Shown here one piece after another: positions 6,882 to 26,453 of a DNA stretch of 32,000 bases (position 1 is its first letter; each line of letters begins with the position of its first letter). The translations under genes were made by a program, and so were the position numbers. The notes under the pieces were generated by a model. That model was not told the origin of the DNA and did not search any database. It worked only from the letters and a program-made list of their open reading frames with translations. The DNA comes from Microcystis aeruginosa NIES-843. Lineage in GTDB: Bacteria > Cyanobacteriota > Cyanobacteriia > Cyanobacteriales > Microcystaceae. Where the stretch lies: the NCBI RefSeq assembly GCF_000010625.1, contig NC_010296.1, positions 3,690,001-3,722,000 on the forward strand. The letters run 5' to 3'.

Positions 6882-6970
6882 CTCACATTTTAGCATATAT
6901 TTCGTAAATGTGCTAATATTTAACAGTAAAGCCGTCGTTCTACGACGGGGTTTCAGACCCAAAATTTTCG
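6882..6970 (-). repeat. Solo copy of the left-end (LE) segment of the TnpB element, copy 1
   Basis: About 95 percent identical to 19124..19211: CTCACATT.TAGCATATATTTCGTAAATGT.CTAATATTTAACAGTAAAGCCGTCGT...ACGACGGGGTTTCAGACCCAAA(A)TTTTCG. Includes the 7-bp-stem hairpin. Abuts ATGAA at 6971. Confidence 0.8.
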
Positions 6971-7207
6971 ATGAAAGCAACGATCCGAAACGTTAAAATT
7001 AGCGAAATCCCCACAGCGATCGAGCAGTTAGGTTTGTCCGCTCATGCGTGTGTCGATTTCACAATCGAGAATCATGAGATGACGGGAAACGAACAGGAGG
7101 AAACCACCCAAGCCTTGATGGAAGTGGTGAATGAAATTCGTGCTTATGCCAAGAGTCAGGGATTGACTGATGAGAAGTTGGAAGAGCTTTTAGTAGATGA
7201 ATCGTGA
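6971..7207 (+). CDS. Putative antitoxin partner of the downstream PIN toxin (78 aa, acidic C-terminus)
   Basis: Small ORF overlapping the PIN gene by 11 nt (7197..7207), the usual type II TA arrangement. No family recognised. Confidence 0.55.
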   Translation: MKATIRNVKISEIPTAIEQLGLSAHACVDFTIENHEMTGNEQEETTQALMEVVNEIRAYAKSQGLTDEKLEELLVDES

Positions 7208-7613
7208 ACCCATTGTTATCGATACGAACGTCTTTATAAGCTTCGCCTTAAGCAGTACGACAACACCAGCTTTGGCTGTAGAATACGCGATTAATAACTT
7301 TATTATTCTGCAAAGTCCCGCAACCATAGGCGAGTTGGTCACAAAACTTCTTCTCCCAAAGTTCGAGAGGTACATTACACTGGAGCAGCGCCGACAACTG
7401 CTAGTAAGAATTTTGGAAATTTCGCTGCTGATTAGACCTACTGACCACACTGAAATTTGCCGAGATCGAGACGATAATAAATTCCTAAATCTGGCAACCA
7501 GTGGGGAAGCACGCTATCTCATTACTGGTGACAATGATTTGCTTATACTGCAACGCTATGGGAAAACAGAGATCGTTACACCAAGGGAATTTTTAAAAAT
7601 TGTTCGGCGGTGA
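7197..7613 (+). CDS. PIN-domain toxin (PIN_3 / TIGR00305-like)
   Basis: N-terminal IVIDTNVFISF and C-terminal RDRDDNKFLNLATSGEARYLITGDNDLL supply the conserved acidic PIN residues. Confidence 0.8.
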   Translation: MNREPIVIDTNVFISFALSSTTTPALAVEYAINNFIILQSPATIGELVTKLLLPKFERYITLEQRRQLLVRILEISLLIRPTDHTEICRDRDDNKFLNLATSGEARYLITGDNDLLILQRYGKTEIVTPREFLKIVRR

Positions 7614-7728
7614 AGTACAAAAAATCCAGTTTGAGTGAGATGATCGAAAGAACAACATCGATATGGAAAAACACGGGATAGACTTTAATTTTGCCAAGAC
7701 AAGTGACTTAAGCAGTAGGTTGGGTTGA
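7612..7728 (+). pseudogene. BrnT (DUF497)-like toxin remnant
   Basis: Hand translation gives ..KIQFE*DDRKNNIDMEKHGIDFNFAK.. This matches the BrnT N-terminal pattern (xFEWDxxKNxxNxxKHGIxFxxA), with TGA where the Trp codon should be. It is truncated after about 35 codons by hairpin repeats. Confidence 0.35.
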
Positions 7729-7847
7729 GCAATAATAACTTTTGTCTGTCAAATATTAGTGACGCTTGAGCGAAACCCAACCACACCAATGTCGTCAATA
7801 ATGTTGGGTTTCTAACTGGGATTGGTGCGTTACGCTAACGCTAACTT

Positions 7848-15342: not shown

Positions 15343-15416
15343 GGGGTCGTAGCTCAGTTGGATAGAGCGAGTGCCTCCTAAGCGCTAGGCCGCCGGTTCG
15401 ATCCCGGCCGATCCCG
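15343..15416 (+). tRNA. tRNA-Arg (anticodon CCU)
   Basis: Manual cloverleaf. Acceptor GGGGTCG/CGATCCC (one G-U). D arm GCTC-AGTTGGATA-GAGC. Anticodon stem AGTGC/GCGCT with loop CTCCTAA. T arm GCCGG-TTCGATC-CCGGC. Discriminator G. CCA not encoded. Confidence 0.9.
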
Positions 15417-15440: not shown

Positions 15441-15630
15441 TAAACAGTGAAAAGATACTGGGAAACTGCTATTTATAGCGCTTTTCACGTTATTGAGGTA
15501 TCGACCAGTTTTGCCAACAAAGGACTTAACCTCCTTAAACAGTGAAAAGAGACCGGGAAACTGCTATTTATAGCGCTTTTCACGTTATTGAGGTATCGAC
15601 CAGTTTTGCCAACAAAGGACTTAAGCTCCT
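15441..15630 (+). repeat. Tandem duplication, 2 x 95 bp, starting 25 bp after the tRNA
   Basis: Unit TAAACAGTGAAAAGA.AC.GGGAAACTGCTATTTATAGCGCTTTTCACGTTATTGAGGTATCGACCAGTTTTGCCAACAAAGGACTTAA.CTCCT occurs at 15441 and 15536, with 3-4 differences. Each unit has an 8-bp inverted repeat GTGAAAAG/CTTTTCAC. Confidence 0.85.
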
Positions 15631-17053: not shown

Positions 17054-17233
17054 AGATCTCTTGTAAAAATCAAAAATTGTTGTTAGGGTTAGGAGTCAGT
17101 AGCCAGTAGTCAGTAGTCAGGAGAATTAAGAATGAATGATAATCAGTTAAATGGTCTATTTACAGACTTTATCCCATTTAATCCTTATTTTTGCCGTTTT
17201 TGAACCCTGAAAAATTAATTATGCAAGAGATTT
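17054..17233. mobile_element. About 180-bp MITE with termini related to the IS5-like element at 23393..24340
   Basis: Left end AGATCTCTTGTAAAAATC compares with IS end AGATCTCTTGCAAAAGTAATC. Right end TTATGCAAGAGATTT compares with IS end TTATGCAAGAGATCT. The interior holds AGTCAGT-type heptamers. A further TIR-like TTTTTGCAGGAGATAT lies at about 17385..17400. Confidence 0.55.
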
Positions 17234-17891: not shown

Positions 17892-19211
17892 TTGACATCC
17901 TCACCGCCGTAAACGGACGGTGATTCCCAAACCTCACGATTTAGGTTTCTGCTTCTTTCCCTTGCGGGGTTCCGCACCTGCCTTAACAGATTTACTCTGT
18001 TCTGGTCTTATGGTCGCTCTACAGACTGACACCGCAAGCCCTGCGGCCAAAATATTTTTACTGGCGTTAATATCTCGGTCATGGTGTGTCCCACAGTCTG
18101 GACAATCCCACTCTCGAATATTTAACGGCATCTTTTCGACAATATGCCCGCAATTACTACACCTTTTAGAGCTAGGAAACCATCTATCTATTTCGATGTA
18201 ATTTCTTCCATACCAACGGCATTTATAGGCTAATTGTCGGGTGATTTCTCCCCAGCTTACGTCAGATATTGCCTGAGATAACTTGGGGTTTTTGACCATA
18301 TTCTTGACGGCTAAATTCTCAACCACAATCGTTTGGTTTTCACGAACTAATTGAGTGGTTAGCTTGTGTAAATGGTCTTTCCTGCTATCGGTGATTTGAG
18401 CGTGAATTTTGGCTACTTTGATTTTTGCCTTTTCTCGATTCTTTGAGTCTTTCTGTTTTCTAGAAAGGCTTTTTTGGGCCTTTCGCAGTCTCCGATAATG
18501 CTTTTTAAAATGCTTGGGATTAGATACTTTATCGCCATCGCTGGTAATCACGAGGCTACTAATTCCTAAGTCAATTCCGATGGCTTTATCTGTTACTGGT
18601 AATGGCTTAATCGTTGGGTCATCAAATCTTATTGAGATATGCCAACGTCCAGAAGGATGTAATCTGACTGTTACTGTGCTTGGTTCACAGCTTTCTGGTA
18701 TTTGTCTTGACCATCGAATAGGTAAGGGTTCTGTGCATTTGGCTAAATAGATTTGTTTGTCTTTGAACTTAAAAGCAGATTTGGTAAATTCGGCACTTCC
18801 TCCCTGATGTTTTTTCTTAAAGTTAGGATACTTAGTACGACCAGCAAAGAAATTAGTAAAAGCTGTTTGTAAATGTCTTAAGCCTTGTTGTAAAGGTACA
18901 CAGCTAACTTCATTGAGAAAGTCTAATTCTTCTTGCTTTTTCCACTCGGTCAACATTGAAGAAGTTTCAGTATATCCTACTCTTTCTTGTCTTTCATACC
19001 AAGCTTGTGTTCTGAGATGGAGTGCCTTATTGTAAACCAATCTTACACAGCCCAAAGTGCGCCGCAATAGCGACTCTTGTTCGGGTGTGGGGTAAAATCG
19101 GAACGAGTAGGCTTTTTCCATGTCTCACATTCTAGCATATATTTCGTAAATGTTCTAATATTTAACAGTAAAGCCGTCGTAGAACGACGGGGTTTCAGAC
19201 CCAAATTTTCG
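17892..19211 (-). mobile_element. IS200/IS605-family element carrying only tnpB (no tnpA); boundaries inferred
   Basis: LE side: the hairpin CCGTCGT-TCT-ACGACGG (minus strand) lies about 20 nt inside the point where three copies stop being alike (19211/19212). RE side: imperfect hairpin 17901..17923 with one bulged base. The proposed end after TCAA (17892) is by analogy with IS608 geometry only. Confidence 0.7.
17934..19121 (-). CDS. tnpB: TnpB (OrfB, IS1341-type RNA-guided nuclease), 395 aa
   Basis: N-terminal FRFYPTPEQ. RuvC triad contexts IGIDLG, VVENL and HDRDINA are all present. Zinc finger CSNCG...CPDCG. Confidence 0.9.
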
Positions 19212-20369
19212 ATGAATCATCCTTACTCTTGGATCGAGGATAGCTTAAAAACCCTCCATCGGGCCAATTGGTATCGAAGGGTTAAAACCATTCAAGGCCG
19301 GGGCGGAGCCGTTATAGAATTAGAGGGTCGATCGCTGATTAATTTTGCCAGTAATGATTATCTGGGATTAGCAGCCGATGAAAGAATGATCGCGGCAGCC
19401 ATAGCAGCAACACAACGCTATGGAACTGGAAGCACCGGCTCGCGTCTATTAAGTGGACACCGAGATCTTCATCGAGACTTAGAATTAGCGATCGCATCCT
19501 TTAAAAATAGCGAAGACGCGATCGTTTTTAGTTCGGGATATTTAGCCAATTTGGGGACAATTACCTGTTTAGTGGGGCAGAAAGACCTGATTTTAGGCGA
19601 TCAATACAATCACTCTAGCCTCAAAAATGGAGCCAAGTTAAGCGGTGCCACGGTGAAAGAATACCGGCACAATAGTCTCGAAGACTTAGAAAATCAGTTA
19701 TTAGCCCACCGTCATCACTATCGTCATTGTTTACTGCTCACTGATACAGTGTTTAGTATGGATGGGGATATCTGTCCCCTGGCGGGAATTCTCGCTCTAG
19801 CCGAGATTTATAATTGCATGGTTTTGGTGGATGAGGCCCACGCTACCGGGGTTATGGGGGAAAATGGCACAGGTTGCGTGGAATATTGTGGTTGTCAGGG
19901 ACGGGAATTAATTCAGATGGGAACCCTGAGTAAAGCTTTGGGCAGTTTAGGGGGATATGTGACCGGAAACGCCAAAATTATCGATTTTATCCGCAATCGC
20001 GCCGCCACCTGGATTTATACTACCGGTTTATCCCCCGCCGACACCGCCGCTGCTAGAATGGCTTTAGAGATTATTCGTCTGGAACCGGAACGTCGCCAAC
20101 GCTTACACCAAAATATTAATTTTGTCAAGAGTAAATTAAATAATCTTAATATATTGCCTTCAGAAGCGGCGATTTTATGTTTACCGGTAGCCAATCCGGG
20201 TCAAGCCCTAGAATTATCGCAAAAACTGCTAGAAAAAGGGATTTTTGCCCCCGCCATTCGTCCTCCTACCGTTCCCACCAGTCGTCTGCGGTTTACTGCC
20301 ATGGCCACCCATAGCCTCGCCCATCTAGAGGTTCTTGTCCAGTCTATTGGCGAGTCTTTCCCCACATAG
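19212..20369 (+). CDS. bioF: 8-amino-7-oxononanoate synthase
   Basis: [22 protein letters not shown] and the PLP-lysine context [13 protein letters not shown]. The track ORF begins at 19077, but its first 45 codons are the IS left end. MNHPYSW at 19212 is the plausible start. Confidence 0.85.
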
Positions 20370-20405
20370 GGAAAAAGTTTTTTCTGGGAGCAGGGAGCAG
20401 GGTGT

Positions 20406-20432
20406 GGGGAAGTGGGGTTTGGGGAAGTGGGG
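20406..20432 (+). repeat. G-run array GGGGAAGTGGGGTTTGGGGAAGTGGGG (G-quadruplex-type motif)
   Basis: Four GGGG runs separated by 3-4 nt, preceded by GGGAGCA GGGAGCA GGGTGT. Overlaps the outer box of attC-like element A. Confidence 0.6.
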
Positions 20433-20514
20433 AACGGTAAAGTGCAGCGGCGGCAGACAACCTTAGCATCACCACTGGGAGCTCCCGACCGTCCGCTCCA
20501 GCGCCTTGTTATGC
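20429..20514 (-). other. attC-like structured recombination-site candidate A (86 bp)
   Basis: Minus strand: GCATAAC-aaggc-GCTGGAGCGGACGG-(32 nt)-CTGCCGCCGCTGCAC-tttacc-GTTCCCC. Starts 10 nt after the stop of the PIN gene. Same segment lengths as element B. Confidence 0.5.
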
Positions 20515-20524
20515 TGCGGCGGGT

Positions 20525-20932
20525 TTAGGGACTCTTGAAAGGATTGACAATTTTCAGCCCATCAATGTCTGAATACCCAAAGTCTTCTGTATAGAGAGTT
20601 TCGACGTTTGCTTCCAAACAAGCAGCAACCACCATCGAATCCCAATGAGACAAACTAAAACGCCTGATCAAGTCCTCAGCACGATTAATCACAGCCCAAG
20701 TTGGCAAAGCTGTGTACCAAACCTGTTGCAAATCTCGAATGTACTGATAGGCTTGCGCTCTGTCATACCCAAATGGCTCAAGTTTGCGGCTTGCCGCTAA
20801 ATATTCGCAGGCAACCTGCCAAATTAAAACTCCCTCTGTCAGATTAGCTACTAGAGAAGCTGCGATTGCCTGCTTACTAGGATAACGCGAATCATTGACG
20901 TAAATTATACTTTGCACGGCTACAACTTGCAT
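20525..20932 (-). CDS. PIN/VapC-like toxin, orphan (no antitoxin gene upstream) and possibly degenerate
   Basis: The C-terminal HWDSMVVAACLEANVETLYTEDFGY fits VapC. At the N-terminus the usual first Asp position reads AVQSIIYVND. The upstream space is occupied by a MITE. Confidence 0.6.
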   Translation of the reverse strand: MQVVAVQSIIYVNDSRYPSKQAIAASLVANLTEGVLIWQVACEYLAASRKLEPFGYDRAQAYQYIRDLQQVWYTALPTWAVINRAEDLIRRFSLSHWDSMVVAACLEANVETLYTEDFGYSDIDGLKIVNPFKSP

Positions 20933-20959
20933 TTTTTACTCAAGGACAATAATATAGTT

Positions 20960-21147
20960 GGTTCTTCGTTACTTGGTATGGTTCGATCAGGGGGCATAAA
21001 TCGGCTAAATCCTTATCTGGCAAGAGACTTAATTGATTAGCTCGTTCTAGATTGAAAACAATTGGCAAAAATCGAAGCAATGTCTTTCTATATAATGGTT
21101 TCATCCCTTATAACTCCCGTCCATTGCATAACACAAACCGAAGAACC
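20960..21147. mobile_element. 188-bp MITE with ISL3-type termini, diverged copy 2, without TSD
   Basis: Same ends (GGTTCTTCGTTACTTGG ... CCGAAGAACC) and roughly 85-90 percent identity to copies 1 and 3. The flanks ATATAGTT and GCATATAT do not match. Confidence 0.8.
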
Positions 21148-21224
21148 GCATATATTTCGTAAATGTTCTAATATTTAACAGTAAAGCCGTCGTAGAACGA
21201 CGGGGTTTCAGACCCAAATTTTCG
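21148..21224 (-). repeat. Solo TnpB-element LE segment, copy 3, truncated by the MITE
   Basis: GCATATATTTCGTAAATGTTCTAATATTTAACAGTAAAGCCGTCGTAGAACGACGGGGTTTCAGACCCAAATTTTCG is identical by eye to 19135..19211. Followed by ATGAAT. Confidence 0.8.
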
Positions 21225-21356
21225 ATGAATGCCCCGCAAGCAACTTCAAGCCACTGTCCTAACCGAGGACTTGCCGCGTAACGCCCGAACTCACCCGCCG
21301 CTATTGATTTTGGCTAATCCAAAAATAATATAACACAGGTCGGCTGCAGTGATTTC

Positions 21357-21665
21357 TTAGACAGTCGCTACTCGATTATTTAACCAACGCTTCAAGGATT
21401 TTTGACTTTCCCCTGATGGTTGGCCAAGAATCAAGTTTTTAGTGCTAATGTCTTCATCTAGTTGATTCCAATGGATTCCACTGCCACCAGCGAGCAAGCG
21501 ATAATCATTGCGCTTCTCAGTTGAGCCATGCAGGAGCCGAGGATACCATGCCAGGGGAACAGATATAGTGCGCCCATCAGACAAATCTACACTGAGTGTG
21601 TCATCTGTGATGGCCAATTGCTGAATAGCCAATGTTTCAAATACTTCATTCGTTAAAAAAGTCAT
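21357..21665 (-). CDS. DUF2442-family protein (102 aa)
   Basis: Pattern ...LSVDLSDGRTISVPLAWYPRL...G.GIHW..LDEDIS is typical of DUF2442. It overlaps the remnant of its usual DUF4160 partner. Confidence 0.65.
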   Translation of the reverse strand: MTFLTNEVFETLAIQQLAITDDTLSVDLSDGRTISVPLAWYPRLLHGSTEKRNDYRLLAGGSGIHWNQLDEDISTKNLILGQPSGESQKSLKRWLNNRVATV

Positions 21666-21753
21666 TCCAGCCTGCTAGTAATTGTTCTTGGTTTTCTTGA
21701 ACAAGTTTTTGAATGCGGTTAATTTCGGTGCGGTTAAATCCTTTTCCGAAACA
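21646..21753 (-). pseudogene. DUF4160-like remnant (C-terminal ~35 codons only)
   Basis: Hand translation CFGKGFNRTEINRIQKLVQENQEQLLAGWNDFFNE* overlaps the DUF2442 start. Stops lie immediately upstream in the same frame. Confidence 0.4.
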
Positions 21754-21917
21754 TACAGAACTAATGAACTACTATACTCATCCCACCAGTCTTGTGTAAT
21801 CTTAAGTAGGGAGGCACAATTATTTGTAGGATGGGTTGGCGGTAGCGTAACATAATCGGGAGTTGGGTTTCATGCTTCAACCCAACCTACGTTCATCTTA
21901 TATTTAATTCCACCCAC

Positions 21918-22010
21918 CTACTTAATGTTGGCGGCAAGAATCAGGTTTTCTGTTGGTCTTGCGGTTAGATGACCCAAAATACTGGTTTCAATATAGAGGG
22001 TTTCGCTCAC
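21918..22010 (-). pseudogene. PIN-toxin N-terminal remnant (30 codons)
   Basis: GTG-start translation VSETLYIETSILGHLTARPTENLILAANIK* resembles the N-terminus of a common cyanobacterial PIN family. It is cut off by hairpin repeats. Confidence 0.3.
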
Positions 22011-22163
22011 GGCAATAAGAGAAAATCTATCCCACGTCTATCCTACTGCATTTAATCTTGGTTTTGAGGGAATTGGGTAACAGCCGTCAACCCAAGCTAC
22101 AAGATCAGCGTACTGCTACGCAGTGCCTTCGGCATCGCACTACCTCCGCCAAAAGATGAAGCG

Positions 22164-22249
22164 GCATAACGGTAAAGTGCAGCGGCGGCAGATCCCCTCG
22201 AACTCAACACAAGCGGCTTTCGCCCGTCCGCTGCCACGCAGTGTTAGCT
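22164..22249 (-). other. attC-like structured recombination-site candidate B (86 bp)
   Basis: Minus strand: AGCTAAC-actgc-GTGGCAGCGGACGG-(32 nt)-CTGCCGCCGCTGCAC-tttacc-GTTATGC. The inner arms pair over 12 bp with two single-base bulges. Starts 20 nt after the protease stop. Confidence 0.55.
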
Positions 22250-22269
22250 GGCTGGCAAGAGCAACCAAC

Positions 22270-22698
22270 CTATCCCGAAACAGGAGCTTTGGGGCTAACT
22301 GCAAACTCTAGCTGTGAACGGTAGAAGCAGACATCAAACTCCATAAAGAAGTTCACCTGCCCCAAGATAAGCGGCACGTTGGTAGCTTGTGTCCAGGCAA
22401 ATACCAGTTGCACGGGATCAAATTGCCCAACGACCGCTTGAGCAAGTACGACACGCGCCTCATATTGAGCCAAATTTCCTGTCAAACTCAGTGCTGTTGT
22501 TTGCCGATCCCATTCGTACCCAAGCTCGACTCCTACTGAATATGGTAGTACGTTTACACTTGCTCCAGTGTCCAATAGACCGGATGCTGTGACAGAAGCT
22601 TGTCTGTAAAACAGAGTAAAAGGCAAATGCGGACGAAAACTGGCTTCACCTAATGCCGCGTCACCAGAAACAAATGGATATCGCTCAGCGTTACCCAT
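22270..22698 (-). CDS. Retropepsin-like (clan AA) aspartic protease, single-lobe, 142 aa
   Basis: LLDTGASVNVL (D-T-G-A active-site motif) and the C-terminal PLILGQVNFF motif. Confidence 0.75.
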   Translation of the reverse strand: MGNAERYPFVSGDAALGEASFRPHLPFTLFYRQASVTASGLLDTGASVNVLPYSVGVELGYEWDRQTTALSLTGNLAQYEARVVLAQAVVGQFDPVQLVFAWTQATNVPLILGQVNFFMEFDVCFYRSQLEFAVSPKAPVSG

Positions 22699-22906
22699 GG
22701 TCTTGAGCTTTGGTAGCCTGTAGCACTTTTAACATCGTATCTGCTGCCTCAACCGCATCATAGGGCGACCACACTGGGTAAGCCTGACCCTGTTTAATCA
22801 AATCTGTCTCCTGTTGGGCTAGTTCTGAAATCAGGAGCTGCATGATATAAAACTTATCTGAACGACCCAGTTCTCTCAATGCCGAGATTAATTCTGATGA
22901 AACCAT
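22691..22906 (-). CDS. Small protein (71 aa) translationally coupled to the protease gene
   Basis: Its stop overlaps the protease start by 8 nt (ATGGGTAA). No domain recognised. Confidence 0.6.
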   Translation of the reverse strand: MVSSELISALRELGRSDKFYIMQLLISELAQQETDLIKQGQAYPVWSPYDAVEAADTMLKVLQATKAQDHG

Positions 22907-22936: not shown

Positions 22937-23368
22937 TTACCCTTTTATTCTAATCGCCCCAACCCGATGCAGTGACGTGCTCGCTGAGCATACACGATAC
23001 AATATCGGCGATCGCACCGTTAAGTCTCTCATTCTAATTTTGTCTTCTTCAATAACTGTAAAGTGTCCATACCAGTCATCCCGCAATGAGATAACCTTGG
23101 CAACTTTCTCAGCGACTACAGATCCAGAAGGTACTCTTATTCTAAACAAAATAATACCAACGCTGGCCGGCAACCTTGAACGAAAGGCGAGTTCTCCAAA
23201 ATCTTGATCAAATGTCAAGAGAATACGATTTTCTGCCTGGGCGCGACTTAAAACTTCCCGGTCCGAGATTCCGGGGGATTCCACCCTAATCCACAGGACA
23301 TCATGGACCTTTTGTCGTAGGGCTTCAACCGCATCAAGGGGGAAATTTTCGTTCGCTAGAAAACGCAT
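22937..23368 (-). CDS. DUF5615-family PIN-like protein with an aberrant C-terminal extension; partner gene missing
   Basis: MRFLANENFP...ILLTFDQDFGEL is the DUF5615 pattern. The last ~30 aa read into a repeat containing GCGATCGC. The upstream space where a DUF433 gene usually sits is occupied by the IS5-like element. Confidence 0.6.
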   Translation of the reverse strand: MRFLANENFPLDAVEALRQKVHDVLWIRVESPGISDREVLSRAQAENRILLTFDQDFGELAFRSRLPASVGIILFRIRVPSGSVVAEKVAKVISLRDDWYGHFTVIEEDKIRMRDLTVRSPILYRVCSASTSLHRVGAIRIKG

Positions 23369-23392: not shown

Positions 23393-24340
23393 TTTAGATC
23401 TCTTGCAAAAGTAATCAAGATATATCCTTTTGTCGGTAACGAAGTTCGTAATTGTAGATACCAGCAATCAAATTCAATCTCAGACCAAATCGCCGTCTGC
23501 GATTTCTGTATCTTGATGAAAGTATCCGAAATATTTTGAGACGACGATGAATATGTTCTATAACTATGCGCCGTTGTGATAACTGACGATTGTCTTTTTT
23601 TTGCTCTTTACTTAGTTTTTCTTTTTTCTTTTTTTATGAGGAATTTGACTGTTTTGATGGATTTTCTGAATTCCTTGATAGCCTTTATCCCCTAATATTT
23701 CTATTCCTTATTTAACCTTATTTTGCTCTCTTTCCACAGTCGAAAATCATGGACTCTTCCTTTCTCACAACGGACACAGATTACCTGCTCGCTTTTTTGG
23801 TCGCAACGCGCTCGCTGCGCGAGATCGGCAACGACTTGCGACTTTAATGTGTGGTATCCCTGCTTGCCACTATAGCATGATTTCTGTTTTTTTTGGGTCT
23901 TTCTATCTCCTGTTCTGACACATCCACCACTATTACTTCTATTTCACTATTACTTTCTAATAGGGCTTTTTTTCCCAGTAGATTAAACAGACCTGATTTG
24001 ATGAGAATATTCTCGACTTTCCTAACAATTCTATACGCCGTTGATTCGTTAATACCCCAACTATTTCCCAGATGAAAATAGGTGCGATATTCTCGCCAAT
24101 ATTCTAGTGTTATTAGTAGTTGGTCTTCCGTACTCAATTTGCTAGGTCTACTGTCTTTTTTTGCCAAACTTTTTCTGCCTTTAGGACTGTTACCATATCC
24201 TTAAATGTATCTGGATACACGCCACACAAGCGTTTGAACTCTGTTGGCTTTAAAGTTTTTACTTGTTCGTAAGTCATCTTTCAATCTTAACTCTTGGACT
24301 ATTTTATCCTATTTTGTCTAGACTTATGCAAGAGATCTAA
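23393..24340 (-). mobile_element. Degenerate IS5-family-like insertion sequence (about 0.95 kb)
   Basis: TIRs: TTAGATCTCTTGCAAAAGT (left) and TTAGATCTCTTGCATAAGT (right, reverse complement). The transposase is readable only in pieces in different frames: MTYEQVKTLKPTEFKRLCGVYPDTFKDMV; LSTEDQLLITLEYWREYRTYFHLG (track ORF 23844..24167); GDKGYQGIQKIH...QRRIVIEHIHRRLKIFRIL. Confidence 0.7.
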
Positions 24341-24519
24341 TGTGCATGGTGCGTTCCCCCAAAAATCGATCGGTGAAGCAGTGGGAGCCACATTAGGGAA
24401 CGCACCCTACAAGATCGGCGATCGCACTGTTTGCTTGCTTTAATTCATAACAAAAATTAACACACGAAAACCAGAAGAGCCAGAATCTTTGTAAAATGGG
24501 TTGAAATATTGCAATAGAA

Positions 24520-25247: not shown

Positions 25248-25415
25248 AATTTTTAGGGGTTGGCGATTGTCAAATCAGCGATGGTTTTATGATAGCTCGC
25301 TTGTGTCTAGTGCCTTGAGGGAGGTTTATGATTTCTCCAATCTCCGTTAAAAAGAAGCAAATATCAAATAATCCTCTTTTAAATAGGGTTTGCTGAAAAA
25401 GTTTGTTGGTGGGGT

Positions 25416-25459
<44 letters not shown>

Positions 25460-26043
25460 GGAGACAGCTATTAGGGATCGGATTTGAGTTTTCAGTTCAC
25501 TGTTTCCTCACACCAGAAGTCTGACGGAGTAGTGGCTTAGATGTGTAATTAATTTTGCTTAGGTACTTATCTATATCCTTACTTTTAATCATGATACCAA
25601 TACTCACCCCCTGCTGAATGTCAGACACATTCTCATACTTTCTAGCGGAATTATCGCCATTAGCCGGTAGTAGTAGTAAGGAAACCCAACACACAATAAT
25701 TGTTATGATTTCTGGTAATGATTTGGTAGTAGTGGCGTAGCCCTCTTGCTTATCTGGTATGAATTGTGTAAAATATTTATGAATAAAAATAATTGGAACC
25801 CGCTCAGTCTTTAAACCTCTAGCTTGATCATGACTTTTCTGATAAATATCTTTTTCTGGCTCCTGTCTGGCTTACTCAAATATCAGTCTAGCACCGAACA
25901 AAGTACCCCCTTCACCTCTATTCCCCTGTCCTAATTGTGGTTCTCACCATACTATCAAGAATGGTTCTATTCATAATGGAAAACCCAAACGTCAAGGTAA
26001 AGAGTGTGGTCGTCAGTTGGTGATCAATCCCACTAATAAAACC

Positions 26044-26230
26044 GGTTCTTCGTTACTTGGTATGGTTCGATAGGGGGTCATAAATCGACTAAATCCTTAT
26101 CTGGTAAGAGACTTAATTGATTAGTTCGCTCTAGATCAAAAATAATTGACAAAAATCGCTAAATGCCTTTCTATATAAGGGTTCCATCCCTTATAACCCC
26201 CGTCCATTGCATAACAATTACCGAAGAGCC
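26044..26230. mobile_element. 187-bp MITE with ISL3-type termini, copy 3, inside IS1
   Basis: Identical to 2434..2620. Perfect 8-bp TSD ATAAAACC (26036..26043 and 26231..26238). Confidence 0.9.
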
Positions 26231-26453
26231 ATAAAACCGTCTCTGACGAAACCAAACAATTAATTGATAAACTCTTGCTCGAACGAATTTCCTTGCGAGG
26301 AATTGCTAGAGTAACAGGGGTAAGTTGGTCATGGTTACAAAACTATGTCAACAATAAACTGGCGGCTGTCCCCCGTCAAATAAAGGTTTCGGACAAACCA
26401 AAAGGTAAATTGGTTAGAGAATGTGATGAGATGTGGTCTTGGGTTTTTTCTAA

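Follow-up and report, generated by a model that had tools for sequence, protein, structure and literature searches.

Cyanobacterial-type attC sites next to bioF in Microcystis aeruginosa NIES-843: a probable relic of an integron cassette cluster

The stretch of Microcystis aeruginosa NIES-843 DNA analysed here, 32,000 nucleotides (nt) long (contig NC_010296.1, positions 3,690,001 to 3,722,000, forward strand) and called the window below, carries a row of small minus-strand genes beyond the 3' end of bioF, and GC-rich elements of 86-87 nt lie at the 3' ends of several of them. An earlier note, made from the sequence alone, had singled out two of these elements, A' and B', as attC sites, i.e. 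the sites that close the gene cassettes of integrons, in a region rich in toxin-antitoxin (TA)-like genes and without an integrase in view. The features at the locus, in window coordinates, are as follows.

19077-20369, plus strand: bioF.
20429-20514, minus strand: putative attC site A', 86 nt, the last site of the cluster, adjoining the 3' end of bioF.
20525-20932, minus strand: gene for a PIN-like (VapC-type) toxin of 135 aa, the cargo of the unit ending at A' (weak Pfam PIN match, E 0.008).
21276-21362, minus strand: putative attC site M', degenerate, at the stop codon of the DUF2442 gene (match to the published hidden Markov model (HMM) at 21361-21279).
21357-21665, minus strand: DUF2442 gene, the cargo of the unit ending at M' (Pfam PF10387, E 6.7e-19).
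22108-22127, minus strand: fragment of an attC 5' arm, GGCACTGCGTAGCAGTACGC, with the core CACTGCGTAGCAG occupying 22113-22125; it lies some 40 nt downstream of B'.
22164-22249, minus strand: putative attC site B', 86 nt, closing the cassette of the next two genes.
22270-22698, minus strand: Asp_protease_2 gene, retropepsin-like, 142 aa (Pfam PF13650, E 7.8e-7).
22691-22906, minus strand: open reading frame (ORF) of 71 aa that overlaps the Asp_protease_2 gene; the two form a two-gene cassette, 22270-22906, ending at B'.

A' and B' are built alike. Read on the minus strand, A' is GCATAAC-AAGGC-GCTGGAGCGGACGG-[32 nt]-CTGCCGCCGCTGCAC-TTTACC-GTTCCCC and B' is AGCTAAC-ACTGC-GTGGCAGCGGACGG-[32 nt]-CTGCCGCCGCTGCAC-TTTACC-GTTATGC. 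Both thus follow the order R''-spacer-L''-centre-L'-spacer-R', with outer 7-mers that end in AAC (R'') and start with GTT (R'), spacers of 5 nt on the 5' side and 6 nt on the 3' side, inner arms of 14 nt (5') and 15 nt (3') and a centre of 32 nt, and both are GC-rich. The 24-mer CTGCCGCCGCTGCACTTTACCGTT is the same in the two and has no other copy in the window; with three mismatches tolerated, 0 of 100 shuffles matched it. In an attC site the bottom strand, here the plus strand of the window, folds to a hairpin in which R'' and R' form the R box and L'' and L' the L box. An unpaired spacer of 5-6 nt and two extrahelical bases direct the strand choice of the integron integrase, IntI, which cuts opposite the G|TT of R'; the gene and its attC leave as a circle and reinsert at attI. 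The outer boxes of attC sites have the general form RYYYAAC...GTTRRRY, with AAC and GTT conserved, and A' and B' carry both triplets. In A' the R boxes are GCATAAC (R'') and GTTCCCC (R'), with the G|TT point at 20435/20434; in B' they are AGCTAAC (22249-22243) and GTTATGC (22170-22164), with G|TT at 22170/22169. The inner arms of B' form Watson-Crick pairs at 12 of the 13 L-box positions and leave a G and an A unpaired, and this site is structurally intact. A' pairs at 9 of 13, with three mismatches in a row. The nearest stop codon lies 10 nt before A' and 20 nt before B'. Positions, common layout, stop-codon distances and the poorer pairing of A' are all as the earlier note had described them.

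Are these elements attC sites of a known kind? A Cyanobacteria-specific attC covariance model (CM) has been built from 51 chromosomal attCs (Ghaly et al., 2021, Commun Biol 4:946; PMC8352920). The model (Supplementary Data 1) has a length (CLEN) of 87 and the HMM consensus GcCUAACAAgUCGcUGcAGCGGACggg...gccGCCGCUgAgCUuaGuCGUUAGgC; its R and L boxes are paired, its spacer is of 5 nt, and G16 and A23 are unpaired. The HMM filter of this CM, retyped by hand from the supplement, was run with nhmmer over the whole window and gave exactly three significant matches, none of them on the plus strand: A' (E 7.7e-12, 40.7 bits), B' (E 7e-10, 34.4 bits) and a third site, M' (E 5.7e-6, 21.9 bits), the scores being those of the sequence filter only and not of the full CM with its 61-bit cutoff. 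The model length of 87 compares with 86-87 nt for the window sites, and the consensus, GcCUAAC-AAgUC-GcUGcAGCGGACggg ... gccGCCGCUgAgC-UuaGuC-GUUAGgC, agrees with them, with the same boxes paired and the same G16/A23. The differences are in detail: where the published L box reads GCUgCAG/CUGAGC, B' and most of the sites collected in this work carry GTGgCAG/CTGCAC, whereas A' mixes two variants and M' has AAG for AAC. A narrower family covariance model, R1, made from an alignment of sites chosen by a 3'-arm motif, gave 93.7 bits for B' and 64.1 bits for A' and left M' undetected.

M' had been missed by the earlier note, which counted two sites only. Its R boxes are GTCTAAG (R'') and GTTACGC (R', with GTT at 21282-21280), and the DUF2442 gene ends within R'', at its stop codon TAA. 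The L box retains 10 of 13 pairs, with compensatory changes; the unpaired G16 and A23 are present in A', B' and M' alike, with spacers of 5 and 6 nt. M' is retained in strains L007 and L010. Since it lies between the other two, the 1735 bp from the G|TT of B' to that of A', previously taken for a single circular cassette, are two cassette-sized units of 888 bp (B' to M') and 847 bp (M' to A'). The R' box of B', GTTATGC, is indeed the exact reverse complement of the R'' box of A', GCATAAC, yet this match of four variable bases in four skips M'. Nor is its chance expectation the 1 in 256 first put forward. A family-specific value of about 0.10-0.14 applies, since R-box types are few in the family, of whose R' boxes 13.6% match A' at 4/4 and 10% at six or more of seven bases. 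The match would fit two sites that were once neighbours, but it is weak evidence and proves little. A single transition separates the R' box of M', GTTACGC, from GTTATGC, the sequence that would fit A'.

Two further traces bear on the history of the array. The half-site beyond B' had been noticed before; its existence holds (0.05 matches to the pattern of the core CACTGCGTAGCAG are expected by chance), its coordinates do not, as the 20-mer lies at 22108-22127 and not at 22103-22122. It gives no match at model level and is probably what is left, as a stump, of the attC of a cassette since lost. Just beyond it, at 22095 and 22085, strains L009 and L012 part from the window, and stump and breakpoints together suggest that at least one further cassette was lost after B'. 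The second trace is in A' itself. Its 5' arm, GCTGGAGCGG, is of a variant type that pairs with CCGCTCAGC (the GAGCGG/CTCAGC type), and its last 24 nt are those of B', including a minority T in CACTTTACC; that the 5' arm and the 3' 24 nt are of different variants accounts for the three L-box mismatches. From this we infer that A' is a chimera of two attC sites that underwent recombination or gene conversion, a type of hybrid to which exchange by IntI at G|TT would not give rise. Chimeras like A' would be the trace of cassettes lost when attC sites recombined homologously, the integrase being gone.

The sites have many relatives. A scan of one genome per species with the 3'-arm motif CCGCCGCTNNACTTNACCGTT, in which divergent sites are under-represented, gave 104 loci, about 85 of them cyanobacterial and from many orders; the hosts include Gloeobacteraceae, Pseudanabaena, Leptolyngbya, Spirulina, Chroococcus, Microcystis and Nostoc. 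The whole of the approximately 86 nt is conserved across this family (gCCAGCTAAC-ACTGC-GTGGCAGCGGACGG-nCGAAAGCTGCTGGTGCTGAGTTCAAGGTTAT-CTGCCGCCGCTGCAC-TTCACC-GTTAGnC), with the R-box consensus (G/A)nCTAAC...GTTAG(A/G/C)C. The centre, which the comparison of A' with B' alone had made appear conserved in length and free in sequence, is conserved in length but also has a family consensus, with which B' agrees. The L box is 93.8% paired over 72 members when the helices are specified by hand, and two of its pairs show compensatory change (GTGgCAGCGG/CCGCTGCAC versus GTTgGAGCGG/CCGCTCAAC). Beyond TAAC/GTTA, the R'' and R' of one and the same site pair only about half the time. Two loci outside the Cyanobacteria, L043 3931-3997 (a proteobacterium) and L087 6872-6981 (Chloroflexi), carry an attC beside a full-length IntI and have the motif GTTCCAGCGGAC...CCGCCGCTGAAC..GTTAGGC in common with the family in cyanobacteria, which are thus not alone in carrying this inner-arm sequence.

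In other cyanobacteria the family sites, detected with R1 and the published profile, form same-strand arrays with a spacing of 0.3-3 kb. Up to 7-8 sites lie within 8 kb in Leptolyngbya sp. Cla-17; six are present in L086 and five each in L046, L055 and L023, and L081 is also among the loci with arrays. A same-strand ORF stops within 60 nt of R'' at 108 of 158 sites, against 39 of 158 in a mirror control, and the TAA within cTAAC is often the stop codon itself. Location at the 3' ends of ORFs, the lack of which was to count against the original reading, thus holds family-wide.

So does the proposed rule of cassette boundaries. If cassettes are circles opened at G|TT, the R' of one site should complement the R'' of the next. 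Over the four variable bases the complementarity is perfect in 36 of 59 array pairs. The controls gave 8/59 (a site's own R'), 5/59 (reversed pairing) and 8.1% (random pairs from different loci), and in 10000 permutations 36/59 was never reached. Over seven bases the counts are 18/59, versus 1/59 with the own R', 0/59 reversed and 1.9% at random. Such complementarity is the mark of cassettes that recombined as circles at G|TT.

Integrases accompany the sites in other genomes. Candidates were located with an IntI1 probe, used for that purpose only, and then verified by NCBIfam TIGR02249 (cutoff 265). Tyrosine recombinases adjoin family sites, from which they are divergently transcribed, and are integron integrases by TIGR02249, the IntI of L082 scoring 452.9 bits. 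Less complete copies occur as well: that of L063 is partial and runs off the locus, that of L054 is a fragment, and that of L110 (Microcystis sp. BLCC-F210) is a pseudogene.

Could the elements nevertheless be something else, such as MITEs (miniature transposable elements with inverted repeats), repetitive extragenic palindromic (REP)-like repeats or insertion sequence (IS) ends, which were spread by transposition and resemble attC sites by chance? They are imperfect inverted repeats that end in TAAC/GTTA, they lie in a region full of true MITEs and IS200/IS605 remnants, and the 3' spacer contains TTAC, which recalls the target of some IS200/IS605 elements. However, target-site duplications are lacking, and the three copies in 32 kb are all at ORF 3' ends and in one orientation. 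The ends of A' and B' show no relation to the tnpB element (17934-19121) or to its left-end repeat family. Elsewhere the arrays adjoin integron integrases, and the family matches the published attC model. Finally, the flank that follows GTT pairs with the R'' of the next site and not with a site's own R'', which transposition does not predict. On the arrays, the integrase adjacency and the boundary rule, an IS200/IS605-end or MITE origin was rejected; it is scarcely credible.

Their position, 10-20 nt past stop codons on the coding strand, together with their character as GC-rich hairpins, might also point to a role at the RNA level, i.e. as structures of the 3' untranslated region that terminate the transcripts of the upstream genes or stabilize them, a role that would then account for their conservation. 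There is no T tract, though, and no terminator-like match at the sites. Neither the Rfam gathering thresholds on the whole window nor an E of 1 on 20300-22400 gave a family, RNA folding energies of A' and B' on both strands are not above those of shuffles, and the integrase linkage and the boundary rule would stay unexplained. This explanation, too, is very improbable; as a side role, A' and B' may mark transcript ends. The earlier note had named the terminus of an IS or a generic terminator repeat as outcomes that would count against attC sites, and here the former was rejected and the latter has no support.

There are, on the other side, several observations that sit uneasily with attC sites at this locus. 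The model scores in the window are filter-level scores, as said. The R'' of M' has AAG where the canonical AAC is expected. The adjacent pairs in the window complement each other at only two of four bases (B' to M') and three of four (M' to A'). Most breakpoints between Microcystis strains coincide with MITE insertions and deletions and not with G|TT, the point at which the earlier note had proposed to look for them. On either strand, A' and B' as DNA are no more stable than dinucleotide shuffles (z of +0.7 to +1.8), and RNAalifold on the 72 family sequences gave a trivial 3-bp hairpin only, the long-range helices not being recovered. Folding of both strands had been suggested at the outset as a check; thermodynamics alone would miss A' and B'. 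Lastly, the extrahelical bases on the bottom strand would be C and T, and the best-studied attC sites carry G and T.

These points notwithstanding, the matches to the published HMM, the family arrays, the adjacency of IntI and the boundary rule bear out the first suggestion that A' and B' are attC sites. It is very likely that A', B' and M' are integron attC sites of the cyanobacterial type, which form the 3' ends of gene cassettes left without a nearby integrase as a decaying relic. Recombination by IntI in the form of a folded bottom strand would be expected of an intact site such as B'.

What became of the integrase? A tblastn search of the 32-kb window with the L082 IntI, up to an E of 10, found no intI. 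Microcystis sp. BLCC-F210 has an intI remnant in divergent orientation to a pair of attC sites, of which one closes a homologue of the B' cassette with 80% DNA identity. When 5.8 billion proteins were searched with this remnant, the Microcystis relatives at 83% identity or more were all fragments, of 105-168 aa. They are N-terminal fragments, truncated to about 146 aa, and share their truncation point and C-terminal tail. The stump has a FUSC-family gene on one side and a Usp gene on the other, a locus that is conserved in the three genomes examined (L110 7214-7645; L120 10001-10441; L121 10001-10330). The DNA from the FUSC gene to the stump varies among strains, and in L110 a 217-bp direct repeat (2080-2296, 7584-7800) brackets the region. 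In the two M. aeruginosa genomes (L120, L121) no attC was found within 10 kb of the remnant. The integrase of this lineage thus appears, from its sequences, to be dead in the genomes sampled, and the cluster near bioF is physically apart from the stump. Another intact intI may lie elsewhere in the genome of this strain, of which 32 kb were examined.

From bioF to about 25.3 kb the window is a strain-variable island of small, mostly TA-like genes (PIN, DUF2442, DUF5615, UPF0175). It is interrupted by an IS200/IS605 tnpB element, by solo copies of the left end of that element and by at least two other MITE-like repeats. The insertions within and next to the cassette units are the following.

17934-19121, minus strand: tnpB of the IS200/IS605 family, with OrfB_IS605 and a Cas12f1-like TNB domain.
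20949-21148: diverged copy of a 200-nt dispersed repeat, by comparison with the repeat family, in the M'-to-A' unit.
21148-21230: IS200/IS605 left-end copy of 83 nt, identical to the sequence upstream of tnpB, also in the M'-to-A' unit; strain L007 parts from the window at 21222.
21802-21924: MITE-like insertion in the B'-to-M' unit; L008 and L011 are without it, and their homology jumps from 21921 to 21805.

Both units, of 888 and 847 bp, are inflated by such MITE or repeat insertions. Copies of the MITE at 21802-21924 are also present in L007 and L010. The antitoxin gene that partners PIN is present in L007 and L009 and is replaced by repeat DNA in the window. Among the dispersed repeats, the 83-nt left-end segment upstream of tnpB (19135-19217) recurs solo at 6893-6975 and 21148-21230, one of these copies, 100% identical, being within the cassette cluster. 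The 200-nt repeat has two copies that are 98% identical (2423-2622 and 26033-26232) and a third, 65% diverged, at 20949-21148, directly before the PIN gene, in the place that the antitoxin gene takes in other strains. A palindromic MITE-like repeat of about 72 nt, GTAGGGTGCGTTCCC...GGGGAACGCACC, is found between TA-like gene pairs in the window (24339-24431), in L008 (4730-4818, 5500-5585, 6413-6483, 8900-8996) and in L009 (2950-3020, 4034-4105), and a copy in L009 stands exactly where that strain parts from the window past B'. Runs of the heptamer AGTCAGG/AGTCAGT lie on both sides of the variable island, at 17072-17123 and 25398-25449. Outside the island, a tRNA gene (15343-15416) is followed directly by a 95-nt unit that is duplicated in tandem with 97% identity (15441-15630).

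In the strain comparison B' always goes with the Asp-protease gene and A' with the PIN gene. The 71-aa gene, the Asp-protease gene and an attC occur together, with 80-89% amino-acid identity, in a Microcoleaceae metagenome-assembled genome (MAG), a Leptolyngbya MAG, 'Cyanobacteriota JS3', Elainella (in part) and two other Microcystis (loci L119, L066, L067, L023, L110 and L034), and more distant homologues are present in four further genomes. In every case an attC follows 24-134 nt past the protease gene. Homology of the cassette to BLCC-F210 (L110) and to L034 stops at 22167, directly past the GTT. From its distribution the pair looks like a cassette common to several lineages, and it may constitute a TA-like or defence pair. 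The expected start of the B' cassette, GTTAGCTGGC, was looked for near 22972-23015 and was not found there.

Might the sites still be live? An intact integrase elsewhere, on the genome, a plasmid or an incoming element, would then move the cassettes in trans, and the cluster would be a live secondary array. Activity, and not identity, is the sole serious alternative. In its favour, B' is structurally perfect, and the B' cassette is at two Microcystis loci, near bioF here and beside the intI pseudogene in BLCC-F210. The last position of the array also differs by strain with the same flank after GTT: the window has PIN and A', and L007 has a different gene, of 75 aa, followed by a variant site C', as the last position before bioF, the flank GTTCCCCACTT being unchanged. 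Moreover, mobilization of such stranded cassettes in trans has been considered possible (Cury et al., 2016; PMC4889954). Against it, the left junction of the replacement in L007 is inside the PIN gene at TTTGGGTAT, a short direct repeat; a search found no attC-type left junction for it. The other breakpoints coincide with MITEs and deletions. In L009 (4700-4730, compared with 20396-20508 in the window) the interior of A' is deleted, leaving GCATAA-GC-CGTTCCC, and part of the PIN gene is lost between two TTTGGGTAT repeats, losses that are those of an array eroding by small deletions. All close Microcystis homologues of intI among the 5.8 billion proteins are N-terminal fragments, the 32 kb hold no intI, and M' and A' carry disabling changes. 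A live array is accordingly considered unlikely.

The decaying relic remains the preferred reading, and the state of the locus, inferred from its parts, agrees with it: B' is intact, M' is without AAC, A' has a weakened L box, and MITE and IS-end insertions have entered the units. Present strain differences, given such a relic, arise mostly by deletions and insertions and not by IntI. With three same-strand attC sites and no intI in 32 kb, the locus is by definition an attC cluster that lacks an integron integrase (CALIN), a class defined by two or more attC sites with less than 4 kb between them (here 888 and 847 bp) and no integron integrase nearby. It is not a complete integron, as the window has no intI and the Microcystis stump is at another locus.

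How does it compare with known systems? With the CALINs of IntegronFinder (Cury et al., 2016) it has in common three same-strand attC sites within 2 kb, a window that contains neither intI nor a pseudogene of it, and a cargo that is small, of unknown function or TA-like, and free of resistance genes. The window cluster is more decayed than these, with one site without AAC, one chimeric, and MITEs and an IS end inside the units, and the genus's own intI is here only a 146-aa stump at another locus. The sedentary chromosomal integrons, such as the Vibrio cholerae superintegron with its V. cholerae repeats (VCR), likewise have homogeneous, lineage-typical attC sites, abundant TA modules and strain-variable content; the window cluster differs in having no integrase and only three sites, and no search was made for attI and the cassette promoter, Pc. 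The VCR type also belongs to one genus, whereas the cyanobacterial attC type is common to the whole phylum.

Integrons in Cyanobacteria and their taxon-typical attC sites (PMC8352920), as well as CALINs (PMC4889954), are already documented. The claim that integron-like structures are poorly documented in such cyanobacteria holds for Microcystis, for which the literature searched gave no description of attC sites or integrons, and fails for the cyanobacterial attC class, which has its own covariance model. The elements are thus of a known kind, and in Microcystis they seem to be undescribed.

A bolder reading is that Microcystis is still part of a phylum-wide pool of mobile cassettes, in which near-identical attC sites and whole cassettes, such as that of the 71-aa and protease genes, are common to several cyanobacterial orders. 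IntI insertion away from the home integron would then have seeded the cluster near bioF, and any incoming IntI could mobilize intact sites like B', adding to the strain variation at this locus. This is rather doubtful.

The identification gives a name to a strain-variable island by bioF in a bloom-forming cyanobacterium, that of a decayed integron cassette cluster. It can be of use in annotation, where small genes and GC-rich hairpins of this kind are usually left unexplained. No new mechanism is involved; the locus would offer a natural example of the decay of a cassette array following integrase loss. For Microcystis itself, the finding very probably means that the genus once had a chromosomal integron, the cassettes of which are now scattered and eroding under the pressure of MITEs and IS elements.

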